The notes under the pieces were generated by a model. It searched no databases. It was given only the letters and a program-made list of their open reading frames with translations, and was not told where the DNA came from. From Rozella allomycis CSF55 (lineage: Eukaryota), in contig KE560959.1 in NCBI GenBank assembly GCA_000442015.1, positions 186,001 to 250,000 on the forward strand: a stretch of DNA of 64,000 nt, in the 5' to 3' direction. Position numbers and translations under genes: made by a program. Below are positions 6,246 to 58,655 of the stretch, one piece after another. Each line of letters starts with the position of its first letter. The first letter of the stretch is position 1.

Positions 6246-7753
6246 ATGAAATTTCCAATGCAATCAAACGAACAGGCTCGCAACTTGTTAAAGTTTATTG
6301 AAAAGTCGCCTTCTCCATTCCACGCGGTAGAAGAAGTAAAACAAAAATTAATTGCTGTTGGATTTAAAGAGCTAAGCGAAAGAAAATGTTGGCCTGTATT
6401 TAAACCCTCCGAAAAGTACTTTTTCACCAGAAATAGCTCGTCAATAATAGCTTTTCATATAGGATCCAAATACGTAAATAATATTTCGATATCTTATGAA
6501 GAAACCAGGCAATGGTTTTAGTATCATCGCTGCCCATACGGATTCTCCGTGTTTGAAAGTTAAGCCAATCTCAAAAATTGTAACGAAAAACTATCTTCAA
6601 ATCGGTGTACAAACATATGGGGGTGGTTTGTGGCACACATGGTTTGATCGAGATCTCTCTGTGGCTGGCAGGGTCATTGTCGAGGAGAATGGCTTAAAAG
6701 AAAGACTCGTTAAAATTGACAGGTATATATATATTCTGCATAAAATTTTGATCCATCTTAAGGATTCCTACATTGGCTATACATTTAGACCGCTCTGTTA
6801 ACGAAGGTTTCAATTTCAACAAGGAATCAAATTTCGTTCCCATATTTTCCTTGGGTTGTGCTGATGAAAAATCCAAAAATCACCACGAACAATTTTTACA
6901 GCTCCTGGCAGAGGAATTGAAAGTCCAGTCTAATCAAATACTTGATTTCGAACTTTGTTTGTATGACACTCAAGCACCTAATTTTGGGGGATTGAATAAT
7001 GAGTTTATTCAATCTGCACGCTTAGACAATTTGTTGATGTCTTATATAGCGATGGAAGTACCTTTGTCAAGAATTGTAACATTAGTCCTTTATGCAAAGT
7101 GCATCAAATAATGAACAAGAAAATATAACAATGACAGCCTTATTTGATAATGAAGAAGTCGGTTCTAGTTCTGCTTATGGGGCTGGCTCAAATTTACTAA
7201 AAGTATCGTTGGAAAGAATACTCGAAAGTCTTGAATGTCAAGTAGGATATTGTTCAAAAGTTGAAATAGAAACATTTTCATGAAACTATTCAAAGAAGTT
7301 ACTTGATCAGCGCTGATTGCGCTCATGCCATTCACCCAAATTACAGGTATCGATTAGAAGCTTCTTAAATAAGTGACAAACATGAACAGAATCACGCGCC
7401 AAGACTCAATGAAGGGATTGTTATTAAAGTGAATGCCAATCAAAGGTACGCTACTACTTCACTTACTTCGTCTATATTCAAGCAGATTGCCAACAAAAAC
7501 AATATTCCTTTCCAAGAATTCGTAGTAAAGAATGATTCTCCTTGTGGAAGCACCATTGGTCCCATACTATCAACATTAATTGGGATAAGAACGATCGGTA
7601 TTGAATTAATATTGTAAGAACTAAGATGTGGGAAATGCACAGCTTAGCATGCATTCCATTAGAGAAATGGCCGGTGTAAATGATGTTTTACTGTCAATCA
7701 ATTTGTTTAATAGCTTTTATCGGGACTTTCCAGAGATTGATAAACAATTATAA
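6246..7753 (+). CDS. DNPEP: Aspartyl aminopeptidase (M18)
   Basis: SPSPFHAV, AHTDSP, YGGGLWHTWFDRDLS, RLDN, FDNEEVGS, ADCAHAIHPNY, SPCGSTIGP, MHSIRE. Confidence 0.95.
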
Positions 7754-7760
7754 TAAAAGT

Positions 7761-8261
7761 TTATTCTAGGGCGTACGGGTAATTCGGGTGTCGATGGTAG
7801 TGATTAATATAATTTTCATGTGGAACTATGTTTTGAATTTTTGGCAACATGTTAAGTTTGGAACTATAATCTTCAAAAACTGTATTCTTGTTCCCTGTTA
7901 ACAGATAACTCTGGGAATCAAATCTTTCTCTATAATAATTCGAAGGATGCGTCTTCATTATATTTTTAAGCACATCGTTTAGTTCGTCTTGCAGTCGTCT
8001 ATTTTCATGCCGAAGATACTAATTATTCTTTAATATAATTTTTACTTCAATTTCTAATTTTTGATTAAAGATAGTCTCTTTCAAAGACTCCAATTCCTTT
8101 TTCTTCCTGTCTCTACACCTTTTTGCCGCCAATCTGTTCTTTTCGGATCGTGAGAGAACTTCTCCATTAAATAATTTTCCAACTGTTTCATTTCTAAAAT
8201 CTGCATTTGAATTGGATAACAAGTCATTAGAAGACAAATTTTTCAACATGATCACTTTCAT
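7761..8261 (-). CDS. bZIP transcription factor (ATF/Jun-like basic region)
   Basis: EKNRLAAKRCRDRKK followed by leucine heptads continuing across one 27-nt intron. Confidence 0.85.
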
Positions 8262-8285
8262 AAATGTTTGATTGTATCTTTTGGA

Positions 8286-8325
8286 ATGACGTCATAGCTA
8301 TGCCACATACGTAATCCATGAGTCA
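8286..8325. promoter_or_regulatory. Perfect CRE (ATGACGTCAT, 8286-8295) and AP-1/TRE (TGAGTCA, 8319-8325) upstream of the bZIP gene
   Basis: Exact consensus bZIP sites 25-65 bp upstream of the bZIP ATG at 8261. Confidence 0.55.
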
Positions 8326-8547
8326 CGAAATCTATACTTGCTTTTTCGGCAAATACACTTCCTTATTGCAATATTTGTAACATTAAGAACTAAATTCGTA
8401 ACGTCAAAAAGAAGTGAATAAGGTTCATGACATCCTGCAAATGTGCAAAATATCACCACTCACCAGCAATCATGTATTTGCAAACTGTGAATCTAAATTG
8501 TCGTTAAAATGAATAACTAGATACTTCAATAATCAATTAAGTATTAT

Positions 8548-9594
8548 TTATTGAAATGCAAAATCAAAAGACTTGACAGTAACGTTGCCTCTTCCAGAAA
8601 ATCCAGTTCCTTCACTATGAATTTTAAGCAGATCTTTATCTTTAAACTTTTTTTCACAACAATAACAATTATTTGTCTTTTTTAGGATTTTATCGCCGCA
8701 AACACTGCAGTACACATGGCTGCAACTTTTTACAACTATAATTTCCATGGCATTGTTGAATGTCTTTAAACAACAAGGGCAAATCTTTTTGTGTTGGTCA
8801 TCGCTAAGGGTAAAATTGACAGATATAAGTTTTTTAATCCTTTAAAATGTATAATCTAAAGTTACGTTATAGGCTGGCTATCCAACGGGCACTCTACATA
8901 TCGCTTAACAGATTCAGCCTTTATCTCCCCCTGTTTTTCTTCTGGTGCTAATGAGGGAACCCAAAAACTAGGAAGTAGATGTTTCTTTTTTGTACTTTCT
9001 TCTTGTTCAATAAACTCTTTTGCCTTTTCAATCTCGCTCTGGACTTTTTCTCCAAAGCTCGTTACGAGAGTTTGATCCAATTCACCTTTCTGAAAAGATG
9101 ATGAAAATGTTACCATTCGTATATTCTATTCGTAGTCTTTTATTTTTAGGGGCATCTTGTTGGGTTATGTTCAATCTGGATTTTGGGGCTGTGTGGTTTT
9201 GAGAGTCTTGGAACGATTGAATGACTAAAGCCTTCGCCTTTTCTTCTAAAAGTTTATTTTTCTCCTCTTTCTTCGTTTCTTGATTTTTAAATAGTGTTTC
9301 TTGCCTATTGATTTCATTCTTTTGCGACAAGATATTTTTATACCAGCACTCTTTGCAAGCCATATGACCATGTGAACTAATTCTTTTCAAAATAATACCA
9401 TACCACATTAAAGGCTCTCTGACAGATTGCAGACATAAAAAACATGAGTCAAAATCACGAAGGCTATCTTTTCCAATACGGTGCTAATTTGACTAAGAAC
9501 ATATTGGTACCTCTTTGGTGCCATATTTTAGCTTGGACTTTTCGTGATAAGTAAAAAAGGAGGACGCAGTGTTGTTTTTGGAATGCCTACCCAT
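8548..9594 (-). CDS. NOSIP: Nitric oxide synthase-interacting protein homolog (RING/U-box)
   Basis: MGRHSKNNTASSFFTYHE, LPSFWVPSLAP, C-terminal RING and GTGFS; 4 short introns. Confidence 0.9.
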
Positions 9595-9628
9595 GCTGCG
9601 CCAACATATACTAACTTCACAAATCAAA

Positions 9629-10520
9629 ATGAAAGCCTTTAAAAATTCTGAATCAGAGAAAAACAATTTCAATCCACATGATAAATTCTTATTTGACGCC
9701 CCAATGTTTTGTGATTTTACGACAGAGAAGTTCCAGTTGGGTAAACAACTTTTGGAGCAATATCTGTATTGTCATGATGCAGATCAATTCAGCATTAGCG
9801 AGGAACTTTCTCAGTAAATTGTAAGCTTTGAATATATAAGAATATTAAATGGTACGGACCATGAATCAGAAAATGATGATTGGTTTCAAAATCTGCATCC
9901 TAGGCACGATAATCTTCAACCTGCTCAGTCTCCAGAGAGTAACAATGTAACTCCTTCACGAAAATTTAAACCACTGAAAAGCAAACTGGACCATACTAAG
10001 GATATGAATTCTACACCAATTTTGAATAAAAAGGCAACGGACAAAATAAAGATTGAAGATTTAAATAGTGTGCACGGTATAATGTCTCCATTGCTAAATG
10101 CGTGGAAAAAGAATAAAAGCGAAAGAAACAGAAAATCGGATGAAAATGAGGATAAAGTAAAACGTATCACACAGAGCAAAATAACATCGAGAAATAGAAT
10201 CACTAACGATAAGATTACTGAAACAGATTTTAACTCACTTCAAGATTTGATTGATCCCGTCTCAAGGAATGAATTGAGCAATTTGAAGATGTTGGATACT
10301 CACAACTACAAACCGAAGGCCCAAAACTACACAAATCAGAACACGAGGGTAAATGTAATTTATTTAACTAATGCAGAAACCCGTTTTAAATCCTATTTTA
10401 CAAGAACGGAGGGACGCACGTAAAATTCAAGCGTCTACTGATGAGATAAAGAAAATGATTTCGGAACATAACGCCAGGATAAGAAGTAGAGTTAAAAATA
10501 AAATCACTAAACCTATTTAA
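9629..10520 (+). CDS. Hypothetical protein with a TPX2-type Aurora-binding N-terminal motif
   Basis: Spliced (9814-9840, 10349-10376) it reads FLFDAPMFCDF...ENDDWFQNLHPRHD, then a disordered basic tail. Confidence 0.55.
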
Positions 10521-10522
10521 TT

Positions 10523-11581
10523 TTATTGATTTGTTAGCTCTGGTTTTAGATTATGGACACTCTGTTCAACATCAACACCTGGATCTTGGTTTAATTCTAT
10601 GATATTCTTGGTTAGATCAAGCCTTCTATATCTCCAGTTTAGAAAAAATATTGCGGCGATGGATGCAGTAGAAACAGATGTAATAAATGAAGCTAACATT
10701 CCCCATGTCAGTCCAATTAATGGAATAATAAGGCCAGCAGTTATACTGAATATTGAAAATGAAGAAGCTCCGAGTATTAATGGGTAAATTGCGCCATTTG
10801 TCACTGCTCTTCCTTGCGATAATGTTACTCCGACCATCGTTGTGTACAGCAAAGATGGGAATACCGAAAATAAACCACCCACGATATCTGAATATTTACT
10901 TATAAATACTGAAGTTCCATTAAAAATATTAACATCTAATTACCGACTGTTATACCCGCAAACATCCCTCTCAATAGAATAATGTACCTTTTAACTTTTC
11001 TGGTTCCTTTAATTGGCTTTTCGGGCTTATAACAAACCCAGTAACCTAAAAGAACTTGAAAGATAAGAGAAGCTACAGAACAGTAAAGTGAAATCGATGA
11101 TTTATCTGTTGGAACATAGTTGCCATAAAGAAACAACAGAGAGCTAGAAGCAATGGCCCAATAAATAAATGTTATTAATGATGTAAGGATCGTTCGTTTT
11201 GTATTCACCAAATGAGAATCTTTCCCGACATAAATTTTGTCTGGCGCAAACTATGTGATATTAATAAAAGGAACCAACTGTACTCGCCAAATTATGAGAA
11301 ATATAACATTGATAGTTATTCCGAGTGGAACCATAAACATTGCTCTTTGAAACTTAATTATTGCCGTTTCGGGATCGAGGGCACTTGAGTCAAAGAATTG
11401 TATATATATTCCGACACATGTAACTAGTATGGTGTTTGGTGCTGATGCTATTAATCCTCCAACAAGTCCACCAAATTTTTCTATCGCAGTCGTTGAACCC
11501 TAAGTGCCCAAAACTCTACCTTGTTACGACCGCTACTAATCCTGCGACTAAACCAGAGACAATTGGCTTCCATTCATTCAT
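10523..11581 (-). CDS. Multi-pass membrane protein with an internal two-fold repeat, function unknown
   Basis: Many hydrophobic segments; repeated motif AIEKFGGLVGGLIASAP / ISKYSDIVGGLFSVFP; 3 short introns. Confidence 0.75.
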
Positions 11582-11698
11582 GACTTATAAGGAAATAAAT
11601 ATTTGATGTATCGGAAATTAATCTTTGCTGAAATTTTAAATATTTTTTGAAATATTCCGATTTAATTAAATTTCTGATTTAAATTTCATATCCTTATC

Positions 11699-12168
11699 AT
11701 GACAATTCCTGTGCAACATGAAAAATCTTTAAACACATTTAGGGTAATTGTTTGCTTTAATGTTTATTAGTACAATTCAATAAACTCGGCGTCTGTTTTG
11801 GCGGCTCTTCAAGACAAAGGTAATTTATACCTTATTAAATCAATGAAGATTTAGAATTAAGCTACCCTCTTATTTTTTCACCACATATAGCTTCACATTC
11901 ATCGAGTTCATCTGAGGGACAATCTGATTACCGTGACGAGGCCAAGTCCCAAAAATTAAAGCAAAAACCCTATAAGCAAAATTCATTTAATTGTAGAAAG
12001 TGCGGAAAGATGTATAAAAGCAAAAACTGCCTAAATAAGCACGCATGGGAGCATCACGAAATGTGGGAAGCCACCAAGCGACTCGGGTTAACCAAACATC
12101 AACAAGTCCAATTACTAGAGGGCGCTCAAGCTTTGTATCTTATAACAAAGAGTTTTAAATCCAAATAA
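11699..12168 (+). CDS. Small C2H2 zinc-finger protein (fungal type)
   Basis: CRKCGKMYKSKNCLNKHAWEH followed by KHQQVQLLEGAQAL; 2 short introns. Confidence 0.8.
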
Positions 12169-12317
12169 TTTCTCTAATAAACTTAAATTTTCTTTGGCCT
12201 ACGAATATATATGTATAATTCATATTGTATGTCATAATATTATAAAGTAAATTACTAAGTTTACCATTAAAGTTACGGACAGAATGTGGATGCTTGACCC
12301 TTGTCACTTTGAATAAG

Positions 12318-14208
12318 ATGGTGTCTACTGAAGCTCTAAAAGCTATTCAGATGCATTTTGATTTGTCAGAATCTGAAATTGAATTATATCATAAGTACTT
12401 TTTGAAGTACGACCCCAGGTGGACAGGATCGATTTCAAAATCATCCGTGGCAAGAATATTGAAAGATCTAAGTATAACAATAGAAGAAACATTTTTTGAA
12501 GAGTTTTATGGACGATCTAAACTAAAATTTAACAGGGAAATAAGTGAAATCGAGTATTTAAAAGTAACACCTTCACTTGGACTAAATAGTTAATGGGCCG
12601 AATTCACAAGTTTACAAAAGAAAGAGAAATTTTATATTCAAAATCTCGGGCTAATCATGGATCTAAATTTAACCAGTTGCTTGATTTTGTGGCTGGGAGA
12701 TCTCCAAACGACTCTATGAGAAGTGGTACTATTTTTGCGAGGAAAAAAGATTTTTTGCCTGACGTAGAATCTTTAGGGCCGAATTCTTGGAGCATTAACA
12801 CGCGGGCAGAAAATTCCATGAAACATGTTATTGAGCCTACCAGTCCATACGATTTTGGCAAAGAAAACAAGGTTTTCGAGAAATATTTCAATGATGCTGA
12901 ATCTGAATGTTCTGAATATAACTACTTCGATGATGATGAAGACATGCTTTTCCTCGAACTTGAAAATATAAACTACATGGATATCAGACATGATTTGAAA
13001 AACAAAAAAGATTCATTTGACAATGAAAAAGTTATATTTTTAGACGACAAAGATGACGATGAAAAGAAGAAGATTTTTGATCAATTAGACAAGATTAGAA
13101 AAAGGAGAGAAGATGATGACTCTAGAAAGAGAACTATTAGAAAAAGTAAAGAAGATTTATCATTATCATTGCCAAGCGCTTTGATGGATCCAAAGGTTAG
13201 GAAGCAAATTTTAAAACAGAAAATTCACAAAGTACGAAAATAAGTTGCCTCGTTTATTTCTAGCCTTACTTTTTAATTTTCATGCTACTTGCATTGACAG
13301 TTATTATGATCGCTGAAATAGTTATGAACAAGGGATTTGAAAGTATTTCTGCCAACTACTTGTTTGGACCAAGTGCAATGACACTTGTCGGAATGGGCGG
13401 AAAGTATGTCCAGTGTATGAGAACAAATCATACAATAACACCGGAAGCTTTAACTCCGTGTGCTCCAGGTTACAATGGTCCTTCGAAAGTGTCCACCTCT
13501 AGCAATATGTGTCGATACTATGACTATATTAATGAATTGTGTGGATTTGGAGGATTCGCACAAAAATATAAACCCGATCAATGGTTTCGATTTTTCACCC
13601 CAATGTTTCTTCATAGTGGAATAATTCACTTGTTTTTGAACGCGTTGATGATCTATAGAAATGGGTTTCCTTTAGAAGAACAATTAGGCAGTTTTCGAAT
13701 GTCGATTCTCTACATCATCAGCGGCGTCGGAGGGATTCTTTTTTCTTGTCTTATGATCCCTACAAATAGTAAGATATTATTGCACATTAAAACCTTAGTT
13801 AGCGTTGGCGCCTCGAGTGCCATTTATGGTCTTTTTGGAATGCTATACTTGGATCTGTTCTTCAACTGGCCAATGCTTGTTCACCCTATGAAGGACTGTA
13901 TCATCGTCACAATGCAACTGGTGGTATCTTTTTCCATTGGGCTGCTTCCTGGGATTGATAATTTTGCTCATATAGGGGGTTTTATTACCGGTATACTAGC
14001 TAGTTGTATTCTTACACCTAAAATTTTCTACAGCAGCTGGGATAAAGGCCGTAAAATTATATTGATGATAATTTGCTTCCCAATTTTGGTTGGTCTTTTC
14101 CTATATGGATTTTTAGCGTTTTATAGCAACATATCTTCTACTGAAATATGTTCGTGGTGTAAATATCTAGATTGTCCCGTCCCTGATAATGCATTCTGTC
14201 AGCAATAA
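12318..14208 (+). CDS. Rhomboid intramembrane serine protease with an N-terminal EF-hand-like region
   Basis: Short introns near 12565-12590 and 13232-13263 join three ORFs in frame; QWFRFF, HSGIIHLFLN, catalytic GASS and AHIGG. Confidence 0.88.
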
Positions 14209-14253
14209 ACTTTTTAGAATTTTTATCAATTGAGCTTTTATGACGTTATCAAA

Positions 14254-14270
14254 ATAAACAAAGTAAACAA
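14254..14270 (+). promoter_or_regulatory. Tandem forkhead-type motifs (ATAAACA, GTAAACAA) abutting the FAM92 ATG
   Basis: Sequence aaaATAAACAaaGTAAACAATG. Confidence 0.4.
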
Positions 14271-15173
14271 TGTTGGGCTCCGGTGGGTAATTCAGCATTT
14301 TATTGTTTAAAAAGATCTGATGATTTGGCACGCTGGATAAAGAAACGAGTTCATAACACCGAGAAGTGTTTTGCGTTCTTTGAATCAGAACTTGGGGGTT
14401 ACCTAAGGAATCAAGGACGTAATATAAACATTTACATTGTCAAAGGAACGCGAGAAAAGAATTTGAAAATATCAGGTGTTTTAAAAAACATTTCTGATCT
14501 TGAAACACCAAACTTGAATGCTGCTTTAGAAAATGTGGCACTTGCCTTTGATGCAGTTGAGCAGCATAGAAAAATTATGGTAATAGACTTTGTTGGACCT
14601 GATTAGATTGACAGGATGGATGTTCGTGCAAAACAAAACCTACATTTATATAAAATAATATGTAAAAGTGTAAAGGTAAGTGGCTCACAAGATCATTATT
14701 TTAAAGGATGAACTGAAACTGAGAGAAAATGCAGTGACAAAAGAAACAAAGAAGCAGCAGGCACTTGAAAAAGCTACGATTAAATCAGGAATTGATAAGA
14801 CTAAAATAGTACATCTAATTAAGGAAATATAATGTTAGGTTCAAGTAACTAATGATTATTTTAATGTTAGTCACAATTAGAGTTGGCAGGGGCAAATCAA
14901 GAAGTTGTTCACAGCAACCTTGCTCTAACTGAACATGTTGAACGCTTTGAAACACAGAAAATGTTAGATATCAAGGTGATTTTTATATTTTCCATTAAAA
15001 AGTCCATTTTAGAAGAAATTCTCTATTCTGAAATGGTTTTTCACGCAAAAAGCCTCGAACTGTATTCTGAAGCTAAAAACATACTTCAAGCGGCAAATAT
15101 AGAAGAAGACATTGAATATATGAATGAAAGATTAAAGTTTACCCATGAAGAAGATTTAATAAAAAAACAATAA
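14270..15173 (+). CDS. FAM92: FAM92/CIBAR ciliary BAR-domain protein
   Basis: FETQKMLDIKSILEEILYSEMVFHAKSLELYSEA...IEEDIE matches the FAM92 C-terminal region; 7 short introns including a 6-nt microexon. Confidence 0.8.
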
Positions 15174-15187
15174 GTGGACATCTTTAT

Positions 15188-15802
15188 TTAAAGAGACAAT
15201 TCCATAATCGCTGTCACCACATCGTTGTTATTTTCTCTTAGAGCCTTAATCGCTTTATTTCTGCTGCAATTGGTTTGGGACATTATCATGTCTATATCAG
15301 ATGAATCAAGTCCGGTTGCGTCAGCATCATTCTCATTGTCATCTTCCTCTTCTTTGACCTCAGCCTTAGTTTCTACTTTCTCTTCAGTTTTTTCTTCACT
15401 AGCTTTAAACCTTTCTGCGGCAGCAGCAGCTTGGCTGGCGGCGCTCAAGTCTTCGACACGTGCTTCCCCAAATACGATATAAGTGCCGTTAAGTGGATTT
15501 TTGTAAACTTCGGGATGAGCAATAGAAAAGACAATCTAATAGTAATATAAATGTATTTTTACGTTCTTTGAGCGTTTCATTGTTAAGCGAGTAATTCCAG
15601 TGATGCGTTTTAATCCCAATTTGAGAAGAGCTTTGCGGGCTTTCTTTTCTCCGCGAGAAACTTTGACTCCTTGGGCGTTTGTAGAATGTTCATGACCTTC
15701 TTCGTCACTGTCACTTTCATGAGCACAATCGTCGTCGTGCTTGCAGTTAGCAGTGTGTTTATGAGTTTCGGAGACAACAGCGTTCATTTCGTCTAAAGTC
15801 AT
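15188..15802 (-). CDS. EGD2: Nascent polypeptide-associated complex alpha subunit
   Basis: [29 protein letters not shown] and a C-terminal UBA ([34 protein letters not shown]). Confidence 0.95.
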
Positions 15803-15989
15803 TTTGCCCTGAGAAGAAAATGTGGCGTTTAACTTGGACAAGGGTACAGTTTAGGTAGAGCGTTTGACTGAGGCCACTTTTCAATTTACTGGTCAAGTGG
15901 TCATATTGTAGAATTAACAGCAAAATTGAAAAAAGTTTTTACGTTAGACTTCTTGCATTGGACTCTAGTAATCTAAGCCACCGATTGAA

Positions 15990-16665
15990 ATGATATTGAA
16001 TCTAATGGAATATCTAATCTCTGTCATTTTTCTACTCTCTTTGAATCAAACGTCTGCATTTCATGTTGATGAAGAATTCAAATACGTTACGCTTGGAAGT
16101 TTGATAAAGTTAACACATAAATCGACTTCCTACAAACTCCATTCTCATAATGTTATGTATTCTACGGGAAGCCAGCAACAGGTAGCATTTATATTATGAA
16201 TTTGTAGTCTGTAACAGCTTATAAAAATGTAGACGATTCTAATAGTCTATTTATTGTGATTGGGCCATTTGGTGATTCATATCATAGAGGGTAAGAGATT
16301 GTAACAAACTTAAAAGTCAAAAAATTAAATGTGGGCAAAATATACGTTTGAAACATTCAGAAACCAAGAAGTACTTACATAGTCATTACCACACGTCAGT
16401 TTTGTCTAATAACCAAGAAATCAGTGCATATGAAGGATCCGACAGTGGAGATAATTGGACATTGGAGTGTTCAAAAACTTTTTGGGAGAGAGAGAATGAT
16501 GTGCGACTAAAGCATGCTGACACCAAAATGTATTTGACGACTAGTTCAAGCTATTCTTTCACGCAAGGCCCCATACCCGGGCAATTAGAAGTGCATGGAT
16601 ACGCTATAAAAAATAATAATAACATTTGGATTGCCCAAGAAGGCTATTACTTTCAACAAGAGTAG
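15990..16665 (+). CDS. SDF2: SDF2-like MIR-domain ER protein
   Basis: Signal peptide, VTLGSLIKL, LHSHNVMYSTGSQQQSVT, GDNW, PIPGQLEV, WIAQEG. Confidence 0.9.
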
Positions 16666-16679
16666 AAAATAAAGATCAA

Positions 16680-19600
16680 TTATTTGGACTTTATATACTG
16701 TGCAAGAGTTTCGCTTAATTCATTATATCCTTTTTCTAAATCTGCTTGATATTCCAATTGATCGTGTTTGATCATCATTCTATTCAATTTGATGGCTCTT
16801 TCGCAGACTTGAGTAAATTTTTCAAATAGTGATTGCAATTCAGTAATTTTTTCGGTAGGATAAAAATCCCGTTGTGTATGATCAAGAAAAACCTTTGCGA
16901 TTTCCAATGGGCCAGCGTTGACTTGCAAACGGACACTTCCTTGCAAAACCATTTGTAAAGTTTTGATATTTACAACAGTGCTATCTAATATTTTAGACAA
17001 TTTATCACATCTAAGCTTGATAGCTTCGATTGCAACGTCGATCGGTTCCATATTGACCTTTTGAATTTAAATATTGACGTTACCTCATTCTTGGATTCTA
17101 TCGTCAATCGAGACGAGCAAAACGGAAAGGGAACGTTTGTTTTCAAATAAATCTTCTTTTTACATTGAGAACTAATAGTGCCATGAGATTTACCAGACAG
17201 CGTATAGGGAACTTCATATATGAATGAATCTATGAAAATGGCAACTACATTAGACTACCTATAAAGAAGTCGTTGTAATCGTAATATTTATTATGTGCTT
17301 TCTTCTTGGGGATTGGATCAACATAGTTAATACCGAGGTAGATACATCCATCATCCATTTCAGATTCCTCGAATTTCCTGCCTTTTAAAATTTTGACTTT
17401 ATGATTATTTAAATTCAAATAATATCCTTCTATGTATTCACAAAATGTAGCTAGCGTTGTGAATGGCTTTTGGCGAAAGATGTATTCCTTATCATGAAGG
17501 GTCGGATAAAAGGGACAATAAAAGTGAATGTAATAAAACGATCCAAAACATCTCTTGGATATTTTTTCTGCTTTTATTAGATTTTCAAAAAGATCTTTTA
17601 GCAGTCCATGAGTTTTCATTAAATTTTGATTGTCATGGTTTTTTTCATATAGATGTAATACTATCTTAAAAATTTCAAAAGCCACTTCAAACATTCCGGC
17701 CTGAGAAAACAAGGAAGACGCACTCTCAAGCATGGCTATTAAATTTGATTCAGAAAAATGATCATTTTGACAAATTCCATCCTCCTCAAAGTTTAACTCA
17801 TCACTAAAGCATATGGATTCATCAATAAATGGAAATAAGATTGTAAAATCTTTAGACCCTTTTGGCTTGGTGTACTGCGCACATGTCCTATTTAAATACT
17901 CAGCTATTAAAGCACAACAATGTAATTTTGCAATTGCAGCTTCGCAAAAAAAGGAATTCTTTGTTAAATTATGAGTTGCATTACCCTTTCATGGAGAAGT
18001 GAGAGGTCAAGAAAGGTCAATAAGCGAAGGTCTGGAGTTCCAACATGGCAATTTGCCAAGCTATAATATACATCTGCAAGATTATAATAGTCATTAGCAA
18101 ATTCATCTAGTTTTACTGAATCTTTTACCACTTGCTTTAATATGTCCGAAAACTGGATTATTTCTTCTTTAAAAAAGACTGATATTTGCTTTGGATCATT
18201 TTCCGCTAAAATTCGTAACTTATCCAGTGTCGTTGAAAACTTTGTGCCAGGCTTTAAATTGTACAGAGCTAGTGTCATTTGAATTTTGACCTTGTTAAAA
18301 TTTTTGCCTGTAATTCTCATATTCATCTTCAGCATTAGATACAAAAGAGATATCGCTTTATTTTGAACACTAACATTCAAAGATGTACACTTTTTCATCA
18401 ATTCATGGCATAAATCATAACAAAGATTATTTCTGGTTTTAAAAATACCAATCGAGTTCGATAATTAAGTAACTCAAACTTTTACTTTCTGAATAAATAT
18501 TTTTATTGCATCAAATAGAACAAGCAATGCATCTATGCTTTGGTTTAAAGACAAGGGGTTAATGGGAATCCTTCCAATGATTACTAAATCATTTTTATCA
18601 TTAATTGTCTCTTTATTTAGAGCCAGGAATACATTAATTGATATGCAGCACATTTTGTAGGAGGTCCATCCTTCCAGTTTTACTTCTCTCTTTACGTTAC
18701 GAAGATTGTAAACTGTTTGAGTTGAATTAATGGACGCATGCTTTCGAGTCACTAGTGTATTGAATAGGATATTCCTACAAGTATTGGATTTTTGTTTGAG
18801 GGTTTCCCTTATTTCCCTTAGTGACTGTCCAGGAGCATTGCTCTTGAATAAATCTTCGATATATTTCTTTGAAACATAATTTTATGCAGGTTACTTTGGC
18901 TTCAGTCGCAGTGCTCTTCAGCGAATGGCTAGACGCTATAAACTTCTCTTCTAAAATTTTCTTTCCAGGATACAGTTATTCTATCACAAAAAAACCTTTA
19001 CTTGGAAAACAGTGTTTGCGAATGCTAATATCTCGCAAAAGTTGAATAACTTGTTATGTTGCGGATCGTTCGAATACAGCCAGTCCACAAGTATATTCAA
19101 AGAGATATTATTTAGAATATGAAATACTATCAAAGAAATTAATTTTCTTTCGCTTTCATTAAAGTTTGCAGGATCTATAACGTAAGCATGAAATTGACAA
19201 ATTTCAGTAGCGAAAGGAAAGAACATCAAAGATATTCTTTGCTTCCATTCTCGGTCTTGATACCTATCATCGAATTCTATTTTGCATAAAAGGTCTTTAA
19301 AAGTGCTTAAAGCCTTTAATCGAACCTCCTGAGACGTGTGAGTAATATCTCGCAAAACTTCATGAACCACGTGCCCTGGAAGATAGTACCTTTTCCTATT
19401 CATGTTTTACAGTTAATATATACCAAAATTCTTTAGGTACATTTTCAATTTCACAAAATTTAATGTCACTGTACACTTGTAGTGGCAAAGAGAGTACAAT
19501 AAAGACCTCGCTGGAACAAATAGTTTTGATAAAATCATATTTCAAAAAGTACAAACTTTCCTTATCTTTCTCGGAGAGCTCTATTATATGCTGAGAAACC

Positions 19601-22463
19601 TGATTCTCTTAGTTCTAAATGTAAGTACCAGTTCATAGATAATTGACCTTGGTAATACCGAAAAACAATTTGTTAGAAATTGTGCTAGTCCATCGTTCAA
19701 TTGTCTAGCAGCGCCAAACCCTGAAACGCACCTTCTCAAGACTATTTCCACAGGAAACAATATTCTTACTTTCTTGAGTTAATTCAGGGACCAGTAAACA
19801 CAATTCCGAGATGAACTGGTCTTCTTTGTTTATTGTACTTTCCTTTTTATAATCCAAGAATTGAATCATTGATTTAAGAACTGTTTCAAAAACAAACCAA
19901 GAAGAAATAATATACTCCTTATGAAGTGGATTCTAAATGTTTCAATTTAGCTTTGATTACACATTCCAATAACATCTCCCTCCATAGCTTTATTATTTCG
20001 TAATGATATTTAAACTTCCATGATATGTTGATTCTGAAATATAACTGTACATAACGTTCTAGATTCTCTGTGTGTTTTAACTGCGGATCTTTCTGAATTC
20101 TAAATTGTTATCTATAGGCGAAACTCATTACTTGCTGACAAGCATGCAGATCCCCAGAAAAGCTGAATACTGTAATTCTTTACATGCAGATTCACAAATA
20201 ATGAAAATTAAAGCCTCAAGTATAGGGATCATAAATTTCAGCAAATCAAAGGAATCAGTGTTTTTCAGACTATCAATTTTCTGAATCCCTGATTTTTCAA
20301 TCAAAGAGTCACCAGGTATACGATTACTAAACCAGCCAAAAAAATCTCCTATTTTGTTATTTTGAGTAAGAAATGAAGAGTCCAGTTTAATGGAGACCTT
20401 TAATAAAGGTCTTTTACTATCTAGCCATTTCATATAAGGATGTGTCTCAAGATTAAGATAATCATTTGCTAATTCCGAAGCTACAGGTATTTCATATTGG
20501 CCATCTTCAATAACTCCATTCCTCTATATTACAATATACAATCTTACATTTCTGTATTTTTTAGTTTTAAATAAGAGTAACCAACAATCTCATGCTCTGA
20601 TTTCACATTATTAAGCCTAGATTTACAAGACACGTGATAGAATGTAAACAATATATGCTCTTCGTCGTTCACTTCGGGATTCAAAAATATTTTTATTTCA
20701 TCTGAAAAATTTGGATATTTATTATGATAAGTAACCGTGGATATTGAAAATTCCGCCCAATCAGCGATTCCATCGTTGCGAAAGATCGTTTTCTGAGCCT
20801 TTCCATCTCTAATATGCTCAATTTTACACATAATATTCCTTGCCCTGCCCATTGCTTTTCGCAGATCAACTTCGTGAATGTAAACGTACATTAGATTCTT
20901 AAATTCATAATCATTGACTACCTTTTCCGGTAAAAGTCCGACTTCATACGATAAAACAGGCAGTTTTTCATTAAAATTTATATGTTTGAATAGATGACAA
21001 TTAACTGTATTTGAGCTTTGTTCTTTTATCAATTTTTCATTTTCTAAAAGACGAGATGTAATGTCAATAAATGCTTCGGGGTATTTTTTATTATGCTTGT
21101 TGTTAAAGCCTCCCACATTTACTTCTGAAAGTACTTCACGCAGATAAGTATTAAAATTCCTATCATTTTGTATCCTAAATATAGGTAGTTCTCGTTTTTG
21201 ATCTTTTTCTCGGACCACTTCTGAAACTAAATAGTAACTCCAACCAAATGATTGCCATATTTGAGACGAAGTAATGGAACATAGTCTTGAACCAAAGCTT
21301 TCGTCATATTTTGCCTTGGGATTCACATACTTGTCGATGACAGCATTAAAATCACTCTCTAGTATTTTGTCAACTTTAAATATTAAGCATAATTCACAAT
21401 TTGAAACTGGTAAATTGAAAACAAATCTCTTCAATAAAGTATCGTATTCATGACCAAATGTCGATGTTAATTTATCCGGGATGATTAATGTATAAATGGT
21501 CTCTGTTACACGCCTTCCTTGTGAAAAATCATAAAGATAGGTCGATATTCTAAAAATTTCGAGCAGTCCTATCTTGGTCCTCAAACCTGAAACGTCAATT
21601 ACAAACGACGGCCTAAATTATCTCCTTTAATATTAAATACCTTCTATTAACATCAATATCAGTTTCTTCATGCTCTGATAACATGTTATTTTCTAATTCT
21701 GGAAATGCATGTAAATCCGGATCATTGTATACACAAAATAGGCTAGGGATGTGATGCTTATGGCGCCTTATATTTTAGATTACTTTTATTAAAGATTTAT
21801 TCCACATAGAAAAGTCAATGTCAAAAAAGGTTAAATCAAAATCCTCTGTGATGGACTTAAATGCCAAATTTTCAAATTCATTAATAATATTAAAATCTTT
21901 AGAATCTAAAACCAACAACTTGAAATTATACTTTTCTCATCAATCTCAAAAACAAGGTTTTCGAACTTGGAATCCGCTGAACCAAGTTTCTCCCTCATAT
22001 TCGGGTGAGCTCTATACATCCCAATTTTTCTCCTTAATGTTACCCAAAACTTAGTTTCAAAATAGTTCATCAAGCTCTTCTGGTAAAAAGGTATCTCATT
22101 ATCATTCTTCTTTTGAATTTGAAATCGAAATACCTTTTGAAAATTAGGTGTAAAGGATAATTCTTTTTCAATATGGTATATTTGTAAAATATTTTGAGGA
22201 AATTGTAGATAGTCCTTAAAACGGTCATGTACTAAGGCGGCCTATTTTCAAAAGAACACTCTTTTACTTTAGATGTCACCTTCCAATATTCTATATGTTC
22301 TTGCACCGAAAGTCTTATGTATTTCTAAAAAATACAGGCATAAAAATTTTACTTCCACTGAATAAGGTTTAGATAAATCAGAGGCATATGTGCTGCCCCC
22401 ATCCTCACCAAATGATGAAAATATACTTGACCTAGACTTAGTTTGAAAGCTTTGATTATCCAT
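16680..22463 (-). CDS. DOCK-C/D (DOCK6-11-like) Rho-family GEF
   Basis: DHR-1 (YHNKYPNFSDEIKI, HILFTFYHVSC) and DHR-2 (LQMVLQGSVRLQVNAGPLEIAKVFL); many short introns, two with non-AG acceptors. Confidence 0.92.
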
Positions 22464-22529
22464 AAACGGAGGGTACCTTGATAAGGCAATAAATTGTTTT
22501 TTACAAGTGGATTTTCAAAATAGTAAACA

Positions 22530-23714: not shown

Positions 23715-24114
23715 AACGTGTCATTGATTTACTTACTATTTTGGCACATCAAGTCTTGAATCTTGATCTCATTCTCTTTTCAATCAAACTCTTTCTTTTA
23801 AGTTTTAATTGTATTTTTAAATCTTCTTTTGTTGTAACATTTTTTAATAGATTTAAAAAATCATTTAGGGCCTGGTAGGAGTAAAAAACCTTAAATTGTT
23901 CTTCAAAAACTAGGAATGAGTATGAGGATGTCTATTTCTTCCTTCGAAGGCTTTTCTGGGTTCAACGTTTCTTGTAATATATATCAACTTTTTTATTGAT
24001 TAATTAAATGTTCTGGCTGATTCTCCGACAAAGTTCTCTTGAAGGCTTCATGAATATAGAACAAAATTGGATCAAACAGAATTTTCGTCATTTTCCAAAA
24101 TCCTACAAGATAAA

Positions 24115-40900: not shown

Positions 40901-41374
40901 GAAATTGCTTTAATGTATCCAGAACTCTACAAGGATCTCACAAAAGGCCGCTCATTAACACTAAAAACATTTTTAATTTGGCTTCTTATCAGCGTATTCC
41001 AAGGCGGATCCATCATGGCAGTCACAATACTTCTATTTTCATCACAATTCCTTCATGTTATCTCAATATCTTTCACAGCGCTAATTTTAAACGAACTTTT
41101 AATGGTTATTTTGGAAATACAGACATGGCATAGAGCTATGCTTATATCTGAACTTTTGTCTCTAATATTTTATTTCACATCAGTCCTGATGGTTAAAACA
41201 GACATTAGTAACTTTAATTAATTCTTTATATCGTTAGATGTACATTTCTTACTTTCTTTAGATTGTTTATGGAAAGTATGTGCTATCACAGCAATTAGCT
41301 GCATCCCTTTGTTTCTATTTAAATACATTAAACGATTACTCGCACCTCCAAGCTACGCCAAGTTATCTCAATAA
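37920..41374 (+). CDS. NEO1: Neo1/ATP9 P4-ATPase
   Basis: [52 protein letters not shown]; ends PPSYAKL. Confidence 0.96.
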
Positions 41375-48254: not shown

Positions 48255-48956
48255 ATGAAGGAAGAGGTTTTTCCGCTCATAGTTTTACCCACCGAGATTA
48301 TTTTAAATGTAGCAACATATTTGAATGCAATTGACTTATTTAGTCTTTCAAGAGTAAATTCGAAATTGTACATTGTGTTATCCGACAATGAAGTTTGGCG
48401 AAAAATTTGTCATAGAAGTAATATTAGCGTTAAAAATGTCATTAACCGTGAATTGGAAAATATTTCCCTATTTCCACATAGATGGGCCAATGTTCGACGT
48501 TTGTTCATGAGAAATTTTGACAGCTTATTTAATACAATACATATTAATATTGTTAAAGATAAATTAAATAAGAATGAAAACTCTCTTAGCTATTCTTTCT
48601 GTTGGAAGAATGTTTATCTCCTCAACAGGATTCAAAATGAAAGGATAACCAGAAATGAATTTATTTTTTCAGGAATCAAGTGGAACATCAAACTTGATTC
48701 AGAATTACTGTCTTGTCCTTTCTGCCATTCGATAATGGATATTCGTAACAAGATGTTCCCACAAAACTTTGTAAATGTGAATAATCATAATATACCTGAC
48801 ATATTAAATATATACAGGCCCATTAATCCGATAAAATTAATACCAGACTCATTGATTATAGTGCAACAAAAAAGGACGTGTACACAAACTCGATACACCG
48901 AAAATAAAGTTGATTATTGCTTTAGATGTAGAAACACATCTATGTGTATTCTGTAA
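48255..48956 (+). CDS. F-box protein
   Basis: LPTEIILNVATYLNAIDLFSLSRVNSKL...NEVWRKIC; C-terminal CPFC and CFRC pairs. Confidence 0.8.
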   Translation: MKEEVFPLIVLPTEIILNVATYLNAIDLFSLSRVNSKLYIVLSDNEVWRKICHRSNISVKNVINRELENISLFPHRWANVRRLFMRNFDSLFNTIHINIVKDKLNKNENSLSYSFCWKNVYLLNRIQNERITRNEFIFSGIKWNIKLDSELLSCPFCHSIMDIRNKMFPQNFVNVNNHNIPDILNIYRPINPIKLIPDSLIIVQQKRTCTQTRYTENKVDYCFRCRNTSMCIL

Positions 48957-49067
48957 ATAAATACTCTGGTTTTAACTTTCAAAACTTTCAAATCTTAAAT
49001 TTTGGATAATCTACCCTGGCAATTGTACAATAAAAGTCAGTTGTGGCGCGTTACCCCGAACCCTGAC

Positions 49068-49845
49068 ATGGCTTCTAAGCGATCAATGGCTTCCAAAAGA
49101 GGCGTTAAAAACCCTAAGAAACGAGTGGTTGATTTCGAACCCTCTTCATCAGGAAGTACAGGTGAGTGTTTCTATCAACAATAAATTAGACGATACAACG
49201 TTGGCTAGCAATCGCGAGTTTACTATTGATCAGCAAAGGTAAAAAATATTCTATATTAAAAATTGCGATGATTTAAATAACTTACTTGGTGCATTGCAGA
49301 GTCGTTTTCAAAAGAAAAAGAGTGAAATGCAAAAGACTATGGGCAATGAACTTGAAAAAACATTTTCTAATGCCATTTTATCTATTGAGAGACAGTGCCA
49401 AAACCAAGAGAAGACATTGTAAAAAATTAGTTACCCTTAAATGAAAGGGATGAACGTTTGGGCAATTTAAAAGATAAATTAACAGAGCTGGAAAAAGATA
49501 GAGAAAACCAGTTAATGTTACTCAAAGATGCCATTGACAATTTTAAAACGAGCAATGACAAAATGATAAAGGATTTGGAAGAAAATCAAAGTCATATCGT
49601 CGGGGCCATTAATGAATTTATAAAAGATGTGACTGACATAAGTAAGAGAATAAAAGTAACATAAGCTATGAAGAGAATTTTCAAAGAGAAGAATGCGATT
49701 TGATTAGAGAATCGATTGAAAAGGAGTTTACAACAACTATCAGACAGATAAGAAATAAGGCTAACGATAACCCTATGAGTACCATAAAGTAAAAATCACC
49801 TCAATTCTAAATAGAAAATCATTGAAAGCTATATTTGACTTTTGA
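49068..49845 (+). CDS. Coiled-coil protein, SYCP3/Cor1-like
   Basis: Basic N-terminus and long coiled coil ending EFIKDV...EKEFTTTIRQIRNKANDNPMSTIKKSLKAIFDF. Confidence 0.5.
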
Positions 49846-54157: not shown

Positions 54158-54184
54158 TTTTTTATTTAAATAAAACAAACCTTT

Positions 54185-54777: not shown

Positions 54778-56307
54778 ATGGACGAAGATGCTATTTTGAA
54801 TGCTTTGTTAAACGGGACTTCTTTACCCCCTAGTGCTAGTGGTAAAATAGAAGGAAAACCCCAAACGACTCAAACAATTATGCAAAATAACAATTTGCAA
54901 AGGCCCATGAACTTTCATTCTCCCCATGCTCTTCTTCAAGAAAGTAAAGGATGATTAAATATATTATGAAAGCTATAAATCAGACATTAAAAATAGTAAA
55001 TATAGAAACAAGCAAGAAGTTGAAACGAAGCTGGATGGAATTGAAATCAAGACAAATCAACATGCAAGATTTCTTTAACATGATATTTGATACCTTGCCA
55101 GCAGATATGGCACTGCCTTTTCACCAGGTATTATGAAAGTGTTTTTTAATGTTCAGATAAAGAGCAGCTTTAGCAATGCTCAAATTCCTACCTCTAGTTC
55201 TACCGTCAAAGAACAAACAATAGAAACAGCGTCGGAGATAGCTTTAGCGATGCCTAATTCACCCATGAAGAGGAAAAGGGAAATGGCTGACGCTGATGAT
55301 GTACCTAGAATGACCTTGCGATCGTCTTTAAGTAAATAGTTTTTTTCTGATTTGATAGGCTCCAGGTTAATTTATTTTTGTAAAGATATGTAGCGTACCC
55401 CAAAAAATAATTGAAGATGAAGATGTAGAACTGGAAGAACCGCCAGTGGCCAAGGACGTTGACGTTACAAGAATGAAGAGCGAAGATTTGCAAGATGTTT
55501 TGAAGTATTCGGGCGTAAATGAAGAAGAGGAGGCCAACGAGATGTTAGAAAACATAGAAGAGTATAGCGTAGATGAAGATGACGCAAAAGATTTGATGTC
55601 GTCGTATGTTAATCTTGTGCACGTGGAAGGATTTAAAGCCGCCATTACTCGAGCTAGTAAAATATGTTATTCTCCATGAAAGTGCGAAAAAATGGTCTCG
55701 GAAATATTAAAGAAGTTTGCTTGGACTATTTGGCGATCGCTGTGCATGAGCGAATAAAGCATATGTTAGAAGAGTTGATTGCTATTAGTAGGCATAGATT
55801 GGATACTCAGCGAGAACAATACAGTTGGAAATTGTTGAACGATCCCAAAAAACAAGTTTGGCTCTTAGATAAATACGATTCTGATGTTAACAATTTGTTC
55901 ATGGAAGGGAAGGAAATTTCTGGAATTCAAGGCGATGATGGAAAGATGAAAAAGAACAAAAAAGTCCCAACTAAAAAGAATGAAAAGGAGGAAACAGCCA
56001 TAAAAGCAAAGTTGGCGAATACTACTGCATTCGCCGCATTGGGCGGGACTAAGAAGTCTTGGATGTCTGGAGGTGGATCCTCGGTTAATAACTCATCAAA
56101 TGTAACACGATTACTGCACTATTAGTCTAGCTTAAAAGTAAAGGGTTGAAAGCTGAAAAAAATCAATTGGAGACTGCACAAAAACATCATAAGACTCAAC
56201 TACAAAGGCGATCCATTGCTCTAAAGGATTTGTTGTTCCTGATTGAGACAGAACCACACTACAGAAAGTCAACATTATTGTTTAATCTATTAACTGACCT
56301 AAAATAA
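54778..56307 (+). CDS. TAF4: TFIID subunit TAF4
   Basis: DLQDVLKYSGVNEEEE, histone fold (LAIAVHERIKHMLEELIAISRHR), ANTTAFAALGG, RRSIALKDLLFLIE. Confidence 0.88.
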
Positions 56308-56309
56308 AT

Positions 56310-58655
56310 TTATTTCGTTAAATCTACATCCATTAAAAATTCATCTTGCTCATCTTTAGTTATGGTCATTGATTCTAAACTTGGGGATATCATGCTCAAA
56401 ACTAAATTAGTATCGAGCTCCATCAAAACATCAAATTCTTTTAACAGTTTTTGTACCTCCTTATCTTCATCATTCGAAAGAATCGTCCTTATTGGCAAAA
56501 GGAAGGCATTTGAACATTTACAATGTATAAGCTTTAAAGCGATGTGGCTACGCACATTTTTGACCCTGTCTTTGCAAAGGGCTTCTATTTGTGGCAGAAA
56601 TCTATAATCTTTATTTTCAAACAAGTCAAACGCTATTTCTATAAAACTGAGTATTAGAAAATATAGTTTTCAATACTCTAGTCTAATGTGATAGTTTGGG
56701 TGCTTGGACGCCTCTTCTGCCTTTGATATTACTGTTTCCCACATTTTCCTATTGTAATGTTTTATTTTAGATATCTAACGTCTATAGAATAACCATACGG
56801 TACCTGTGTAGTAACTTCGGACCGAATTTGAGCCACATCATCTATCAATAATTGATAAAATATAGCAGGTAAAACTTCATCTACGTCTTGGAATGCAAAA
56901 ATGGCACAAAATTTTGCTAGTTGCCTTTATATAACATTATTGAAGCATACTCTGCGATTAACAATCGACATCGCCAATTTTTATTGGATTCANCAGTTGC
57001 CTTTATAAAACAATATTGAAAGCATACTCTGCGATTAACAATCGACATCGCCAATTTTTATTGGATTCATTTACTACAAGTTTAATGCGATCAATAAAAT
57101 TCGCGCGATAAGGTATTGAGAACAGTTCAACAAACTCGCAAAAGTGTTCCAAGACCCCTGTCCTTACCAGATATAAAATGGATGAAAATTATACCTCTAT
57201 ACAATCTCTACAAAAAATGTCAAATATTGATATCAAGTCTTTTTTTGAGTCTTCTTCCCCGATGACCTTAGCTATTTCGTGTAACGAGAACGATAATGTG
57301 CGCCTGATTCGCCAATGAACGTCTACGGCCATAGTTTGAAACAATGGCCTTAACCTTGGCCAAAAATTTTTACCAAGAGTCAATAACACACCTGGAAAAT
57401 AATAAGCACATAGCTGTGAGCGCTTGTCGTCATCTCGTTTGGACTCATTTTCGAGTGTCGTCATTTCAAGATACGTCTCTATTATAACTTCTGGGATCTA
57501 TAAAAGATTAAAAATATTTTTGCCTTGTGGTTTTGGAGATTGCATATAATTTGCCCAGTTGATTCAATGGCGGACGAGCGGACCCATACTGACTCGTCAG
57601 ATAAAAGACTCTGAAACGATTTTAATAAATCAATTTTGTCTTGCACTTTCTTTATGACACTTGATATTCCTTGTGCTACGGCATTCCTAACGATCCAACT
57701 AATATCACCACTAGCCCGGACAATCATTGGCTCAAACACATTCTTCACAGCAAGGGTGGATATTTTTTCGCTGTACAAGCAAATATTTTCAATGCAGAGC
57801 TAAACATTCCGCTTTAAATTTATTACTCTTCTGATAAGATAATTATGATGTTTCGCAAAGTCTACAAATATGGGTACGAAATATTCATTTATCACGTCTT
57901 CGCTTACGACTTCATTAAGACCTTGAAGCAACTATACTTTAGACATGCATAAATGACTTACTTCCAATAAGCAACTTATGATTGTTTCTGAAGATTCGGA
58001 AAATGCTTGCCTCATAAACTCCCCAACCATATCTCTTTGGCATTTTATAGGCAAGAATGAAATTGCTTCGATATAGCAATTCCAACAAGCTGCTTTGACA
58101 GCTTCAGCTTGCTTTCTGTCATCTAAAATCCCCTCTATATACGAACGCAAAATTATTGACTCTAAAACTTCTTCAATCCCCTCTATATAAGATAACTGGT
58201 ATGGAATATTTAAAAATAAGTACATTAGGAAGTAAAATTTTAAAGGCTTTGAGGGATTCATATGCAAATCCTTCTCTGATAATATGTTCTGGATCTTGTG
58301 ACAATATCTGCAAAAATGATTTCAATTTTTCCATAAAATCAGTGGAAAACGTTATTTGTCTTTCACAATATATCACAATTTGCTTGCATGCATATAATCG
58401 ATGCAGGACTAGTTCGCTGTTAACACAATACAGTATTTTCTCTTCTAGAGGTAAGTTTTCATCCACAGCCAAATCATCTGGCGTAATTTCATTTGTATCT
58501 TCTGTAAATGCCTCTTCGCTGAAATTATCTTTGCCTCCTGAAATTGTCTCTTTATTATTTTCAACGAGATTGCCTGTGCTTTCTGAAAGTACCGCGTCAC
58601 TATCTAAAACATATAGCTCTTTGCCTGTTAAACATTATAGGATTTTACCAGCCAT
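56310..58655 (-). CDS. PPP4R1: PP4 regulatory subunit 1-like HEAT-repeat protein
   Basis: CAYYFPGVLLTLG..W..L, DVHWRIRRTLSFSLHEIAKVIG, EVRTGVLEH, NWRCR, DRVKNVR. Confidence 0.85.
56919..57069 (+). repeat. About 75-bp tandem duplication flanking N56993 (assembly overlap)
   Basis: Copies 56919-56992 and 56994-57069 differ only inside the intron portion. Confidence 0.85.

Follow-up and report, generated by a model that had tools for sequence, protein, structure and literature searches.

Putative GT-TG and GT-CG introns within the ultra-short intron class of Rozella allomycis

Rozella allomycis is a parasite of the water mould Allomyces and lies on the lineage next to the microsporidia. We analyzed a stretch of 64,000 nucleotides (nt) from strain CSF55 (contig KE560959.1, positions 186,001 to 250,000; hereafter the window), which holds eight ultra-short introns that appear to end in TG or CG. 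Few signals in eukaryotic genes are as invariant as the AG that closes an intron. Our analyses suggest that the eight are genuine U2-type spliceosomal introns of the ordinary 26-31 nt class of this genome, ending in UG (seven) or CG (one), and we place the probability of this reading at roughly 0.7. Comparison with homologues strongly supports a junction at the non-AG end for five of them (sites 1, 3, 4, 6 and 8; Table 1), where that junction alone appears to keep conserved residues in frame and collinear. The case for sites 2, 5 and 7 is weaker and would rest on a shift in base composition and on the rarity of introns longer than 32 nt.

All eight introns listed in the original prediction were recovered at their coordinates, spread over seven genes as it had claimed. 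Each starts with GTA and is 26-29 nt long. The donor hexamers are GTATAT, GTAATT, GTAAAA, GTAAAG, GTATGA and GTATAA, and all eight donors share the GTA[A/T] start of 145 canonical introns in the window. The last three bases are TTG in four introns, CTG in two, ATG in one and TCG in one. The G at position -1, G(-1), said to be always kept, is present in 8/8, and none carries the AG that marks the 3' end of U2-type GT-AG introns. Shifting the excised segment to GT-AG, GC-AG or AT-AC termini yields the same mRNA at none of the eight sites. Retention is not an option, because each intron shifts the frame or holds an in-frame stop. With about 152-155 canonical introns beside these eight, perhaps nine, the non-AG share is about 5% of introns in the 64 kb.

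The possible ninth intron lies in the gene of site 7 and was absent from the original list. It was picked by a gene model, described below, when TG was the sole extra acceptor. If real, it would lengthen the frame by 40 codons, leading to a canonical intron of 26 nt (49789-49814) and then a short terminal exon. Otherwise, the stop at 49664 would close the gene.

Table 1. Putative non-AG introns in the window and the contigs of DNA run X1 that cover four of them.
Feature	Termini	Positions	Strand	Length and phase	Gene or remark
Site 1	GT..TG	6723-6750	+	28 nt, phase 2	M18 aspartyl aminopeptidase gene
Site 2	GT..TG	10918-10943	-	26 nt, phase 1	Multi-pass membrane-protein gene
Site 3	GT..CG	18459-18485	-	27 nt, phase 0	DOCK gene (16680-22463, -)
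Site 4	GT..TG	18973-19001	-	29 nt, phase 0	DOCK gene (16680-22463, -)
Site 5	GT..TG	23023-23051	+	29 nt, phase 0	Unnamed gene 22530-23714
Site 6	GT..TG	37435-37460	+	26 nt, phase 0	STE20-like kinase gene
Site 7	GT..TG	49239-49265	+	27 nt, phase 2	F-box/coiled-coil gene
Site 8	GT..TG	57168-57194	-	27 nt, phase 0	PP4R1/PP2A-A-like HEAT-repeat gene (56310-58655, -)
Candidate ninth	GT..TG	49642-49670	+	29 nt, phase 1	Gene of site 7
X1 contig		5001-7208			6 differences from the window; covers site 1
X1 contig		17849-21090			3 differences from the window; covers sites 3 and 4
X1 contig		21509-23895			0 differences from the window; covers site 5

The ordinary introns of the window form a narrow length class. 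We counted GTA..AG candidates under two requirements: an open frame of at least 35 codons on each side, and an intron that either shifts the frame or contains an in-frame stop. There were 0 candidates at 25 nt and 21, 26, 9, 16 and 6 at 26, 27, 28, 29 and 30 nt, respectively, with a background under this filter of about 2-6 per length. A gene model built from codon log-odds, GT donors, an empirical length prior and AG acceptors only (hereafter the AG-only model) predicted 173 introns, 152 of which are 26-31 nt long. The picture of more than 100 introns of 26-29 nt drawn by the original prediction is correct. A density of 2.5 introns per kb is given for Rozella in the available text of a comparative paper (PMC8476143).

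Alignment of the 145 canonical introns on either end revealed the 5' consensus GTA[A/T]. The base before AG is T in 59%, A in 26%, C in 13% and G in 3%, and apart from this T/A at position -3 no branch motif or pyrimidine tract is visible in the alignment. The guanine plus cytosine content (G+C) of the intron interiors is 0.23 ± 0.08 vs 0.36 in coding sequence. The longest convincing canonical introns are two GTA..AG introns of 32 nt, at 13232-13263 (+) and 20100-20131 (-).

We compared the exons on both sides of the sites with known protein families (in the motifs below, a caret marks the junction). At site 1, the alignment to Pfam PF02127 reaches about profile position 133-135 in the upstream exon and resumes at position 138 with the second residue of the downstream exon. 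In the aspartyl aminopeptidase chain 7u5h_A from the PDB, residue 154 pairs with the end of the upstream exon and residue 157 with the second residue of the downstream one, and the TG join is exactly collinear with this chain once the split codon and the first downstream residue are counted. Searching metagenomes with the M18 exon yielded 80 environmental loci at 50-75% identity. Among the first 30 of these 80, the motif R/K-P/S-x-x-R-I/V-P/S is uninterrupted in 30/30, and two environmental loci read KIDRSILRIP, identical to the Rozella TG product. We also sought a close rozellid with the same intron among the environmental M18 loci; the first 30 of the 80 have no intron there.

Sites 3 and 4 lie in the same DOCK gene. 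A HMMER search with the exon downstream of site 3 returned 140 matches, and many of the long ones align from query residue 2-6; the PDB DOCK6 chain 9vm2_A aligns from residue 5. The join at site 3, IQK^NSIGIF..C..LC.E.., matches I.K^F...F..C..LC.E.. in the homologues, and the join at site 4, FQ^YPGKK, matches F[EQ]^[YF]xG[KR] in 7/8 of them. All eight DOCK homologues inspected are without a gap at both junctions. A model spliced at both non-AG ends scored better than the AG-only model against 12/12 non-Rozella homologues.

The exon upstream of site 6 aligns to MST3-type kinases up to ..HPMK. Four of four homologues (P0004, P0005, P0010 and P0046) are gapless across WPPLK^IMYYKL; among them are chytrid proteins that read WPPLKILCSKL and WPPLKIIVAKL. 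Searched alone against the PDB, the downstream exon gave chance matches only (E 0.5 or worse). At site 8, a relative with 38% identity (P0003) aligns ..FLTD-EDVRYVAYENL.. with the Rozella join ..FCRDCIE^VRTGVLEHF.., scoring 177 when the gene is spliced at TG vs 164 when the intron is read through. Translated in this way, with X for the stop, the gene loses its alignment to PP2A-A chains at the intron.

If splicing in Rozella used AG exclusively, the true acceptors would be the next in-frame AGs, with introns of 35-145 nt, and the Rozella proteins would lack the residues in between. Such an AG is present at all eight sites, giving introns of 40, 35, 96, 41, 77, 145, 63 and 60 nt at sites 1 to 8, respectively, at a cost of 3-40 residues. 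At site 2 the cost is just three residues, as its AG lies 9 nt beyond the TG, and an annotated Rozella DOCK fragment (P0075) follows the AG junctions, scoring 2038 against the AG-only model and 1993 against the non-AG model. However, what would be deleted elsewhere is conserved: ILRIP in the M18 family, where the site 1 alternative drops SILR; Y-x-G-K (YPGK at site 4) and 23 aligned residues at site 3 in DOCK; a 40-residue exon in the kinase, where the AG at 145 nt is the sole in-frame one; and VR..V in the HEAT-repeat protein. The original prediction had found no nearby AG that restores the frame at 18459, 37435 and 57168 (sites 3, 6 and 8). That holds for nearby AGs, but in-frame AGs do exist further away; at 96, 145 and 60 nt they are far above normal intron length and would remove 23, 40 and 11 residues, the last 11 also aligned. 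Most of the predicted introns longer than the 26-31 nt class are gene-boundary artefacts or the claimed sites themselves. We therefore consider splicing at AG only an improbable account of these sites.

Base composition also bears on the AG alternatives. The segments that would be skipped have a G+C of 0.26-0.52, which is exon-like, vs 0.05-0.35 in the short introns. For sites 2, 5 and 7 together, the intron interior has a G+C of 0.05-0.10 vs 0.36-0.44 just downstream: 0.10 within the site 2 intron, 0.09 at site 5 vs 0.42 in the next 48 nt, and 0.05 at site 7 vs 0.36 in the next 36 nt.

At six of the sites the next AG is 9-119 nt further downstream; at sites 5 and 8 it is just 4-5 nt away. At site 5 it gives an intron of 33 nt, 4 nt past the TG, and at site 8 one of 32 nt, 5 nt past the TG; both are out of frame and thus presumably do not serve productive splicing. 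These AGs bear on a further alternative, in which TG and CG are used part-time beside nearby AGs (32, 33 and 35 nt at sites 8, 5 and 2), much of the output is unproductive, and the arrangement acts as a brake on expression. Precedents give it some weight: in the available text of PMC4176328 the human TG acceptors are described as alternative sites, and in that of PMC10711555 yeast BG sites are of low efficiency and are proofread by Prp22. Against it, conserved and apparently single-copy genes need the non-AG join at five sites for a functional product, and canonical 32 nt introns occur only where there is no G at 22-31 nt. We regard part-time use as unlikely.

In the eight putative non-AG introns, the position of the acceptor follows a simple pattern. 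Counting from 26 nt onward, it is the first dinucleotide to end in G (8/8), and in 0/8 does an AG end at 22-31 nt. In 139/145 canonical introns, AG is likewise the first G-ending dinucleotide at or beyond 26 nt. Splicing of these 145 introns also passes over 52 internal AGs, which end at 15-25 nt; for 27 of them the frame is informative. Because these early AGs are bypassed and there are zero candidates at 25 nt, 26 nt can be taken as a hard lower limit. Neither canonical 32 nt intron has a G at positions 22-31, which fits the idea that the first usable G is taken. The simplest rule that fits these sequences would be that, within about 26-32 nt, AG is used if present and otherwise the first UG or CG.

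The original prediction held that the 3' site is chosen by measured length. The hard limit at 26 nt, the first-G pattern and the lack of a visible branch or pyrimidine motif agree with this; the measuring itself is something we infer. In an intron this short the branch point would lie only a few bases from the 3' end. Exon ligation would then take the first acceptable G-ending dinucleotide that it can reach, starting 26 nt after the 5' splice site, with AG taken if it lies within roughly 26-32 nt and UG or CG serving otherwise. On this view ligation could do without the contact of A(-2) but would still need G(-1), presumably for its pairing with G(+1) at the 5' site.

A constant G(-1) could reflect how the sites were selected, and we used the gene model as a test independent of the original prediction. 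Of the 173 introns in the AG-only model, 21 fall outside 26-31 nt. Seven of these 21 are the AG alternatives of claimed sites (7/8, site 2 being in no predicted gene). Several others are gene-to-gene bridges; single cases are a GC-AG intron, an intron that can be solved canonically at 32 nt and one that crosses an assembly duplication; a few have no assigned cause. At the flagged claimed sites, the position that the frame fixes within 26-29 nt is G in 7/7. Counting an eighth donor at 48953, G stands at 7/8 (P about 3e-5 at a G frequency of 0.17), and G at the frame-fixed acceptor exceeds chance.

In a second test, each non-AG dinucleotide in turn was admitted to the model as an acceptor at 26-29 nt, under an equal penalty. 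TG was the best of the 15 non-AG dinucleotides, with 6 new introns and a gain of 15.2 bits. Adding CG gave 1 new intron, and the other dinucleotides gave at most 4 picks and at most 5.7 bits each. The six TG picks comprise four claimed sites, the candidate at 49642-49670 and one artefact (57052-57077) beside the assembly duplication. Site 7 (49239) was chosen once non-AG acceptors were allowed.

Introns whose acceptors do not end in G were also proposed by the model and were set aside. The GA case at 26929 is a gene-boundary bridge, and the TT case at 48172 was read as one. The AA case at 57002 is a by-product of the assembly duplication, the CT case at 49642 is better read as the candidate TG intron, and 32 nt AG solutions exist for the GT case at 60944. 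An AT case at 25150 was proposed as well and has no explanation assigned.

We compared the window with contigs of three DNA runs and one RNA run over positions 5001-25000. The bases at sites 1, 3, 4 and 5 agree in contigs of DNA run X1 (Table 1), and all nine listed differences lie elsewhere. Three of these four (sites 1, 3 and 4) are also supported by homology. Since X1 departs from the window at other positions, it is not simply the same consensus. Decaying pseudogenes, or a wrong base at position -2 introduced by base-calling or assembly, could in principle mimic non-AG acceptors: the window contains 5 Ns, an assembly duplication at 56925-57027 stands beside one of them, and the runs differ from the window at many single bases. 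Yet the X1 contigs agree at the four sites they cover, the flanking frames are long and conserved, and eight independent errors that all leave G(-1) at a frame-correct distance are implausible. An artefactual origin is thus highly improbable.

Some features of the DNA contigs and the assembly stand apart from the introns. Many single bases in 5001-25000 differ between the window and runs X1, X2 and X5 (for example 10547-10769); positions 18536 and 18543 differ in X1 and X5 and not in X2. Differences shared by only some of the runs suggest heterozygosity or strain variation. In three DNA runs, contig depth over the short segment 23900-24060 is about ten times that of its flanks. Loose ends and small insertions are numerous there, and the segment is probably a dispersed repeat in an intergenic region. 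At 56925-57027 (-), an exon end and intron start (..ESNKNWRCRLLIA^GTATGCTT..) are tandemly doubled beside an N at 56993. The duplicate has the look of an assembly error, perhaps from two haplotypes piled up at a gap, and leads gene models to place spurious non-AG 'introns' there.

We also considered whether the segments are removed by other means, as U12-type introns or by non-spliceosomal excision. U12-type introns tolerate varied 3' dinucleotides. However, the six donor hexamers belong to the canonical GTA[A/T] class, and by eye none resembles the U12 donor or branch consensus. In length and composition the eight introns are ordinary introns of this genome. We find a separate removal system barely credible here.

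Several observations weigh against genuine non-AG introns or against the way we describe them. The homology evidence is uneven: at site 8 it comes from a single relative that shares 38% identity and shows a one-residue gap three residues ahead of the junction, and for sites 2, 5 and 7 neither a Pfam family (E up to 1) nor a homologue was found (for the gene of site 2, none among longer proteins). Site 2 is the weakest of the eight cases; the 35 nt intron that its in-frame AG would give is fairly close to the normal length range. The gene model is crude and fuses neighbouring genes. Six of the 145 canonical introns skip an earlier NG at 26-27 nt; three of these exceptions are in-frame and uninformative, and in two the frame shows an AG at 30 nt winning over a TG or CG at 26 nt. 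Since branch points are not visible, a distance measured from the donor and one measured from the branch point fit alike. At the donor GTAAAT at 48953, short solutions end in CT, TC or AA, and AG solutions exist at 88-118 nt only. Confirmation by contigs of other runs is limited to sites 1, 3, 4 and 5, and X1 may be of the same strain as the assembly. RNA run X9 gave chance matches of 18-33 nt only over 5001-25000, with no joints.

The donor at 48953 belongs to a region (48928-49036, +) of the F-box/coiled-coil gene in which the upstream frame stops at 48954-48956 and the frame of the next exon runs from 48976 without an ATG. It is either a rare long intron, a boundary between two genes with a missed first exon, or an exception to G(-1).

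Weighing these points, we favour genuine UG- and CG-ending introns, for which yeast offers a close comparison. In the spliceosome, AG is recognised through pairing with the 5' site and the branch adenosine and is clamped by the Prp18 loop and Prp8, according to the available part of a preprint (bioRxiv 10.1101/212811). The accessible text of Roy et al. (PMC10711555) describes Prp18 as a ruler for the minimum distance between branch and 3' site, with Prp22 proofreading afterwards. It reports that Prp18 and Slu7 are dispensable when that distance is short, and that Saccharomyces cerevisiae without Prp18 activates BG acceptors, with AUG, ACG, UGG and UUG the most efficient. Like that yeast, Rozella keeps G(-1) and varies position -2, and UUG, AUG and xCG-type trinucleotides occur in both. 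BG use in yeast is tied to a short distance between branch and 3' site, and an intron of 26-31 nt forces this distance to be very short in Rozella. However, the yeast BG sites, as far as that text describes them, depend on the mutant and are mostly of low efficiency and unproductive, and non-G sites also appear. In Rozella, a wild organism, the sites appear to be used constitutively, and the conserved genes in which they lie require them for a productive frame.

By this comparison, Rozella would splice in a relaxed, short-distance regime like that of the yeast mutant, and the match predicts that a factor guarding the fidelity of the 3' site may have been altered or lost. In its widest form, the proposal is that the 3' site is set mainly by a ruler of about 26-32 nt from the 5' site, corresponding to a few bases beyond the branch, with only G(-1) required, that constitutive GT-UG and GT-CG introns make up several percent genome-wide, and that this arose through loss or remodelling of U2AF35, the Prp18 loop, Slu7 or Prp22 on the way towards the microsporidia. 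We hold this wider proposal tentatively, at slightly less than even odds.

Non-AG acceptors have precedents in other organisms. Work by Szafranski et al. from 2007 is reportedly cited in connection with human GT-TG introns. A human survey, in its available text, lists 184 non-canonical sites of all kinds and includes U2-type GT-TG introns, for example in GNAS and TSPYL2 (PMC4176328). Like those of Rozella, they are U2-like, with a normal GT donor and a TG 3' site. They differ in being very rare and described there as alternative sites, whereas the Rozella introns make up about 5% in the 64 kb, and 6/8 of the Rozella sites have no AG within 5 nt.

Tunicates, in the available portion of PMC13326754, show a genome-scale break of the terminal-dinucleotide rule that is tied to the recognition machinery: most introns escape GT/AG, and U2AF is divergent. 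The break concerns 95% of introns and both ends, whereas in Rozella the donor stays GT (one GC was seen) and position -2 alone varies, in a minority. Ultra-short introns are known from Paramecium (about 25 nt) and from myxozoans and Dicyema (22-27 nt), which share with Rozella a narrow class below 30 nt and reduced splice-site motifs (PMC5014332, bioRxiv 10.1101/2021.08.05.455221, PMC13644364). Unlike in Rozella, no non-AG acceptors are reported for these organisms in the available text of the three papers, and Rozella goes unmentioned there.

The original prediction knew of no earlier description of such introns. Precedents do exist, in human TG acceptors and in the BG acceptors of yeast prp18 mutants. 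For Rozella itself we found no description of ultra-short or non-AG introns in the literature, although a remark in the genome paper or its supplements is possible. A constitutive non-AG rate of about 5% is not previously known.

Published gene models bear out the expectation that AG-only models miss these introns, as the annotated Rozella HEAT-repeat and DOCK proteins are wrong at these sites. Two annotated HEAT-repeat proteins, P0001 (ROZALSC1DRAFT_23373) and P0002 (O9G_000615), omit about 150 residues around site 8, comprising the exons on either side. The same gene has a GC-AG intron of 26 nt at 57498-57523 (-), where the AG-only model with its GT donors had a 92 nt intron. The GC donor adds 22 residues (VWVRSSAIESTGQIICNLQNHK) that align with P0003, with a score of 212 vs 180. 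The annotated P0002 reads 'SVW' near this intron and then jumps.

The window as a whole has a G+C of 34% and uses the standard genetic code; a ciliate or other non-standard code was dropped, as the standard code yields long conserved frames. We take it to be nuclear DNA of Rozella: searching with one exon gave two proteins recorded as Rozella allomycis CSF55, with 98% identity to the query across the portion that they span, and other hosts with short introns were set aside accordingly. It is gene-dense, encoding two P4-ATPases, citrate synthase, the DOCK protein, Ndc1, a RasGAP, a rhomboid protein, a FERRY-3 homologue, a SNF2/RING helicase and others. The two P4-type phospholipid-flippase ATPase genes, at 421-4473 (+) and about 38139-41300 (+), lie 35 kb apart.

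Gene finders that accept only AG delete or skip conserved exons, and comparisons that use the Rozella proteome inherit these errors. If the ruler reading is true, a large part of the published Rozella gene set would carry wrong models at sites of this kind. Routine ligation at UG and CG in essential conserved genes would, if true, be a natural experiment on which contacts at the 3' site are needed and on how the second-step spliceosome measures distance. It would also show how the fidelity of Prp18, Slu7 and Prp22 can relax during genome reduction on the branch leading to the microsporidia.

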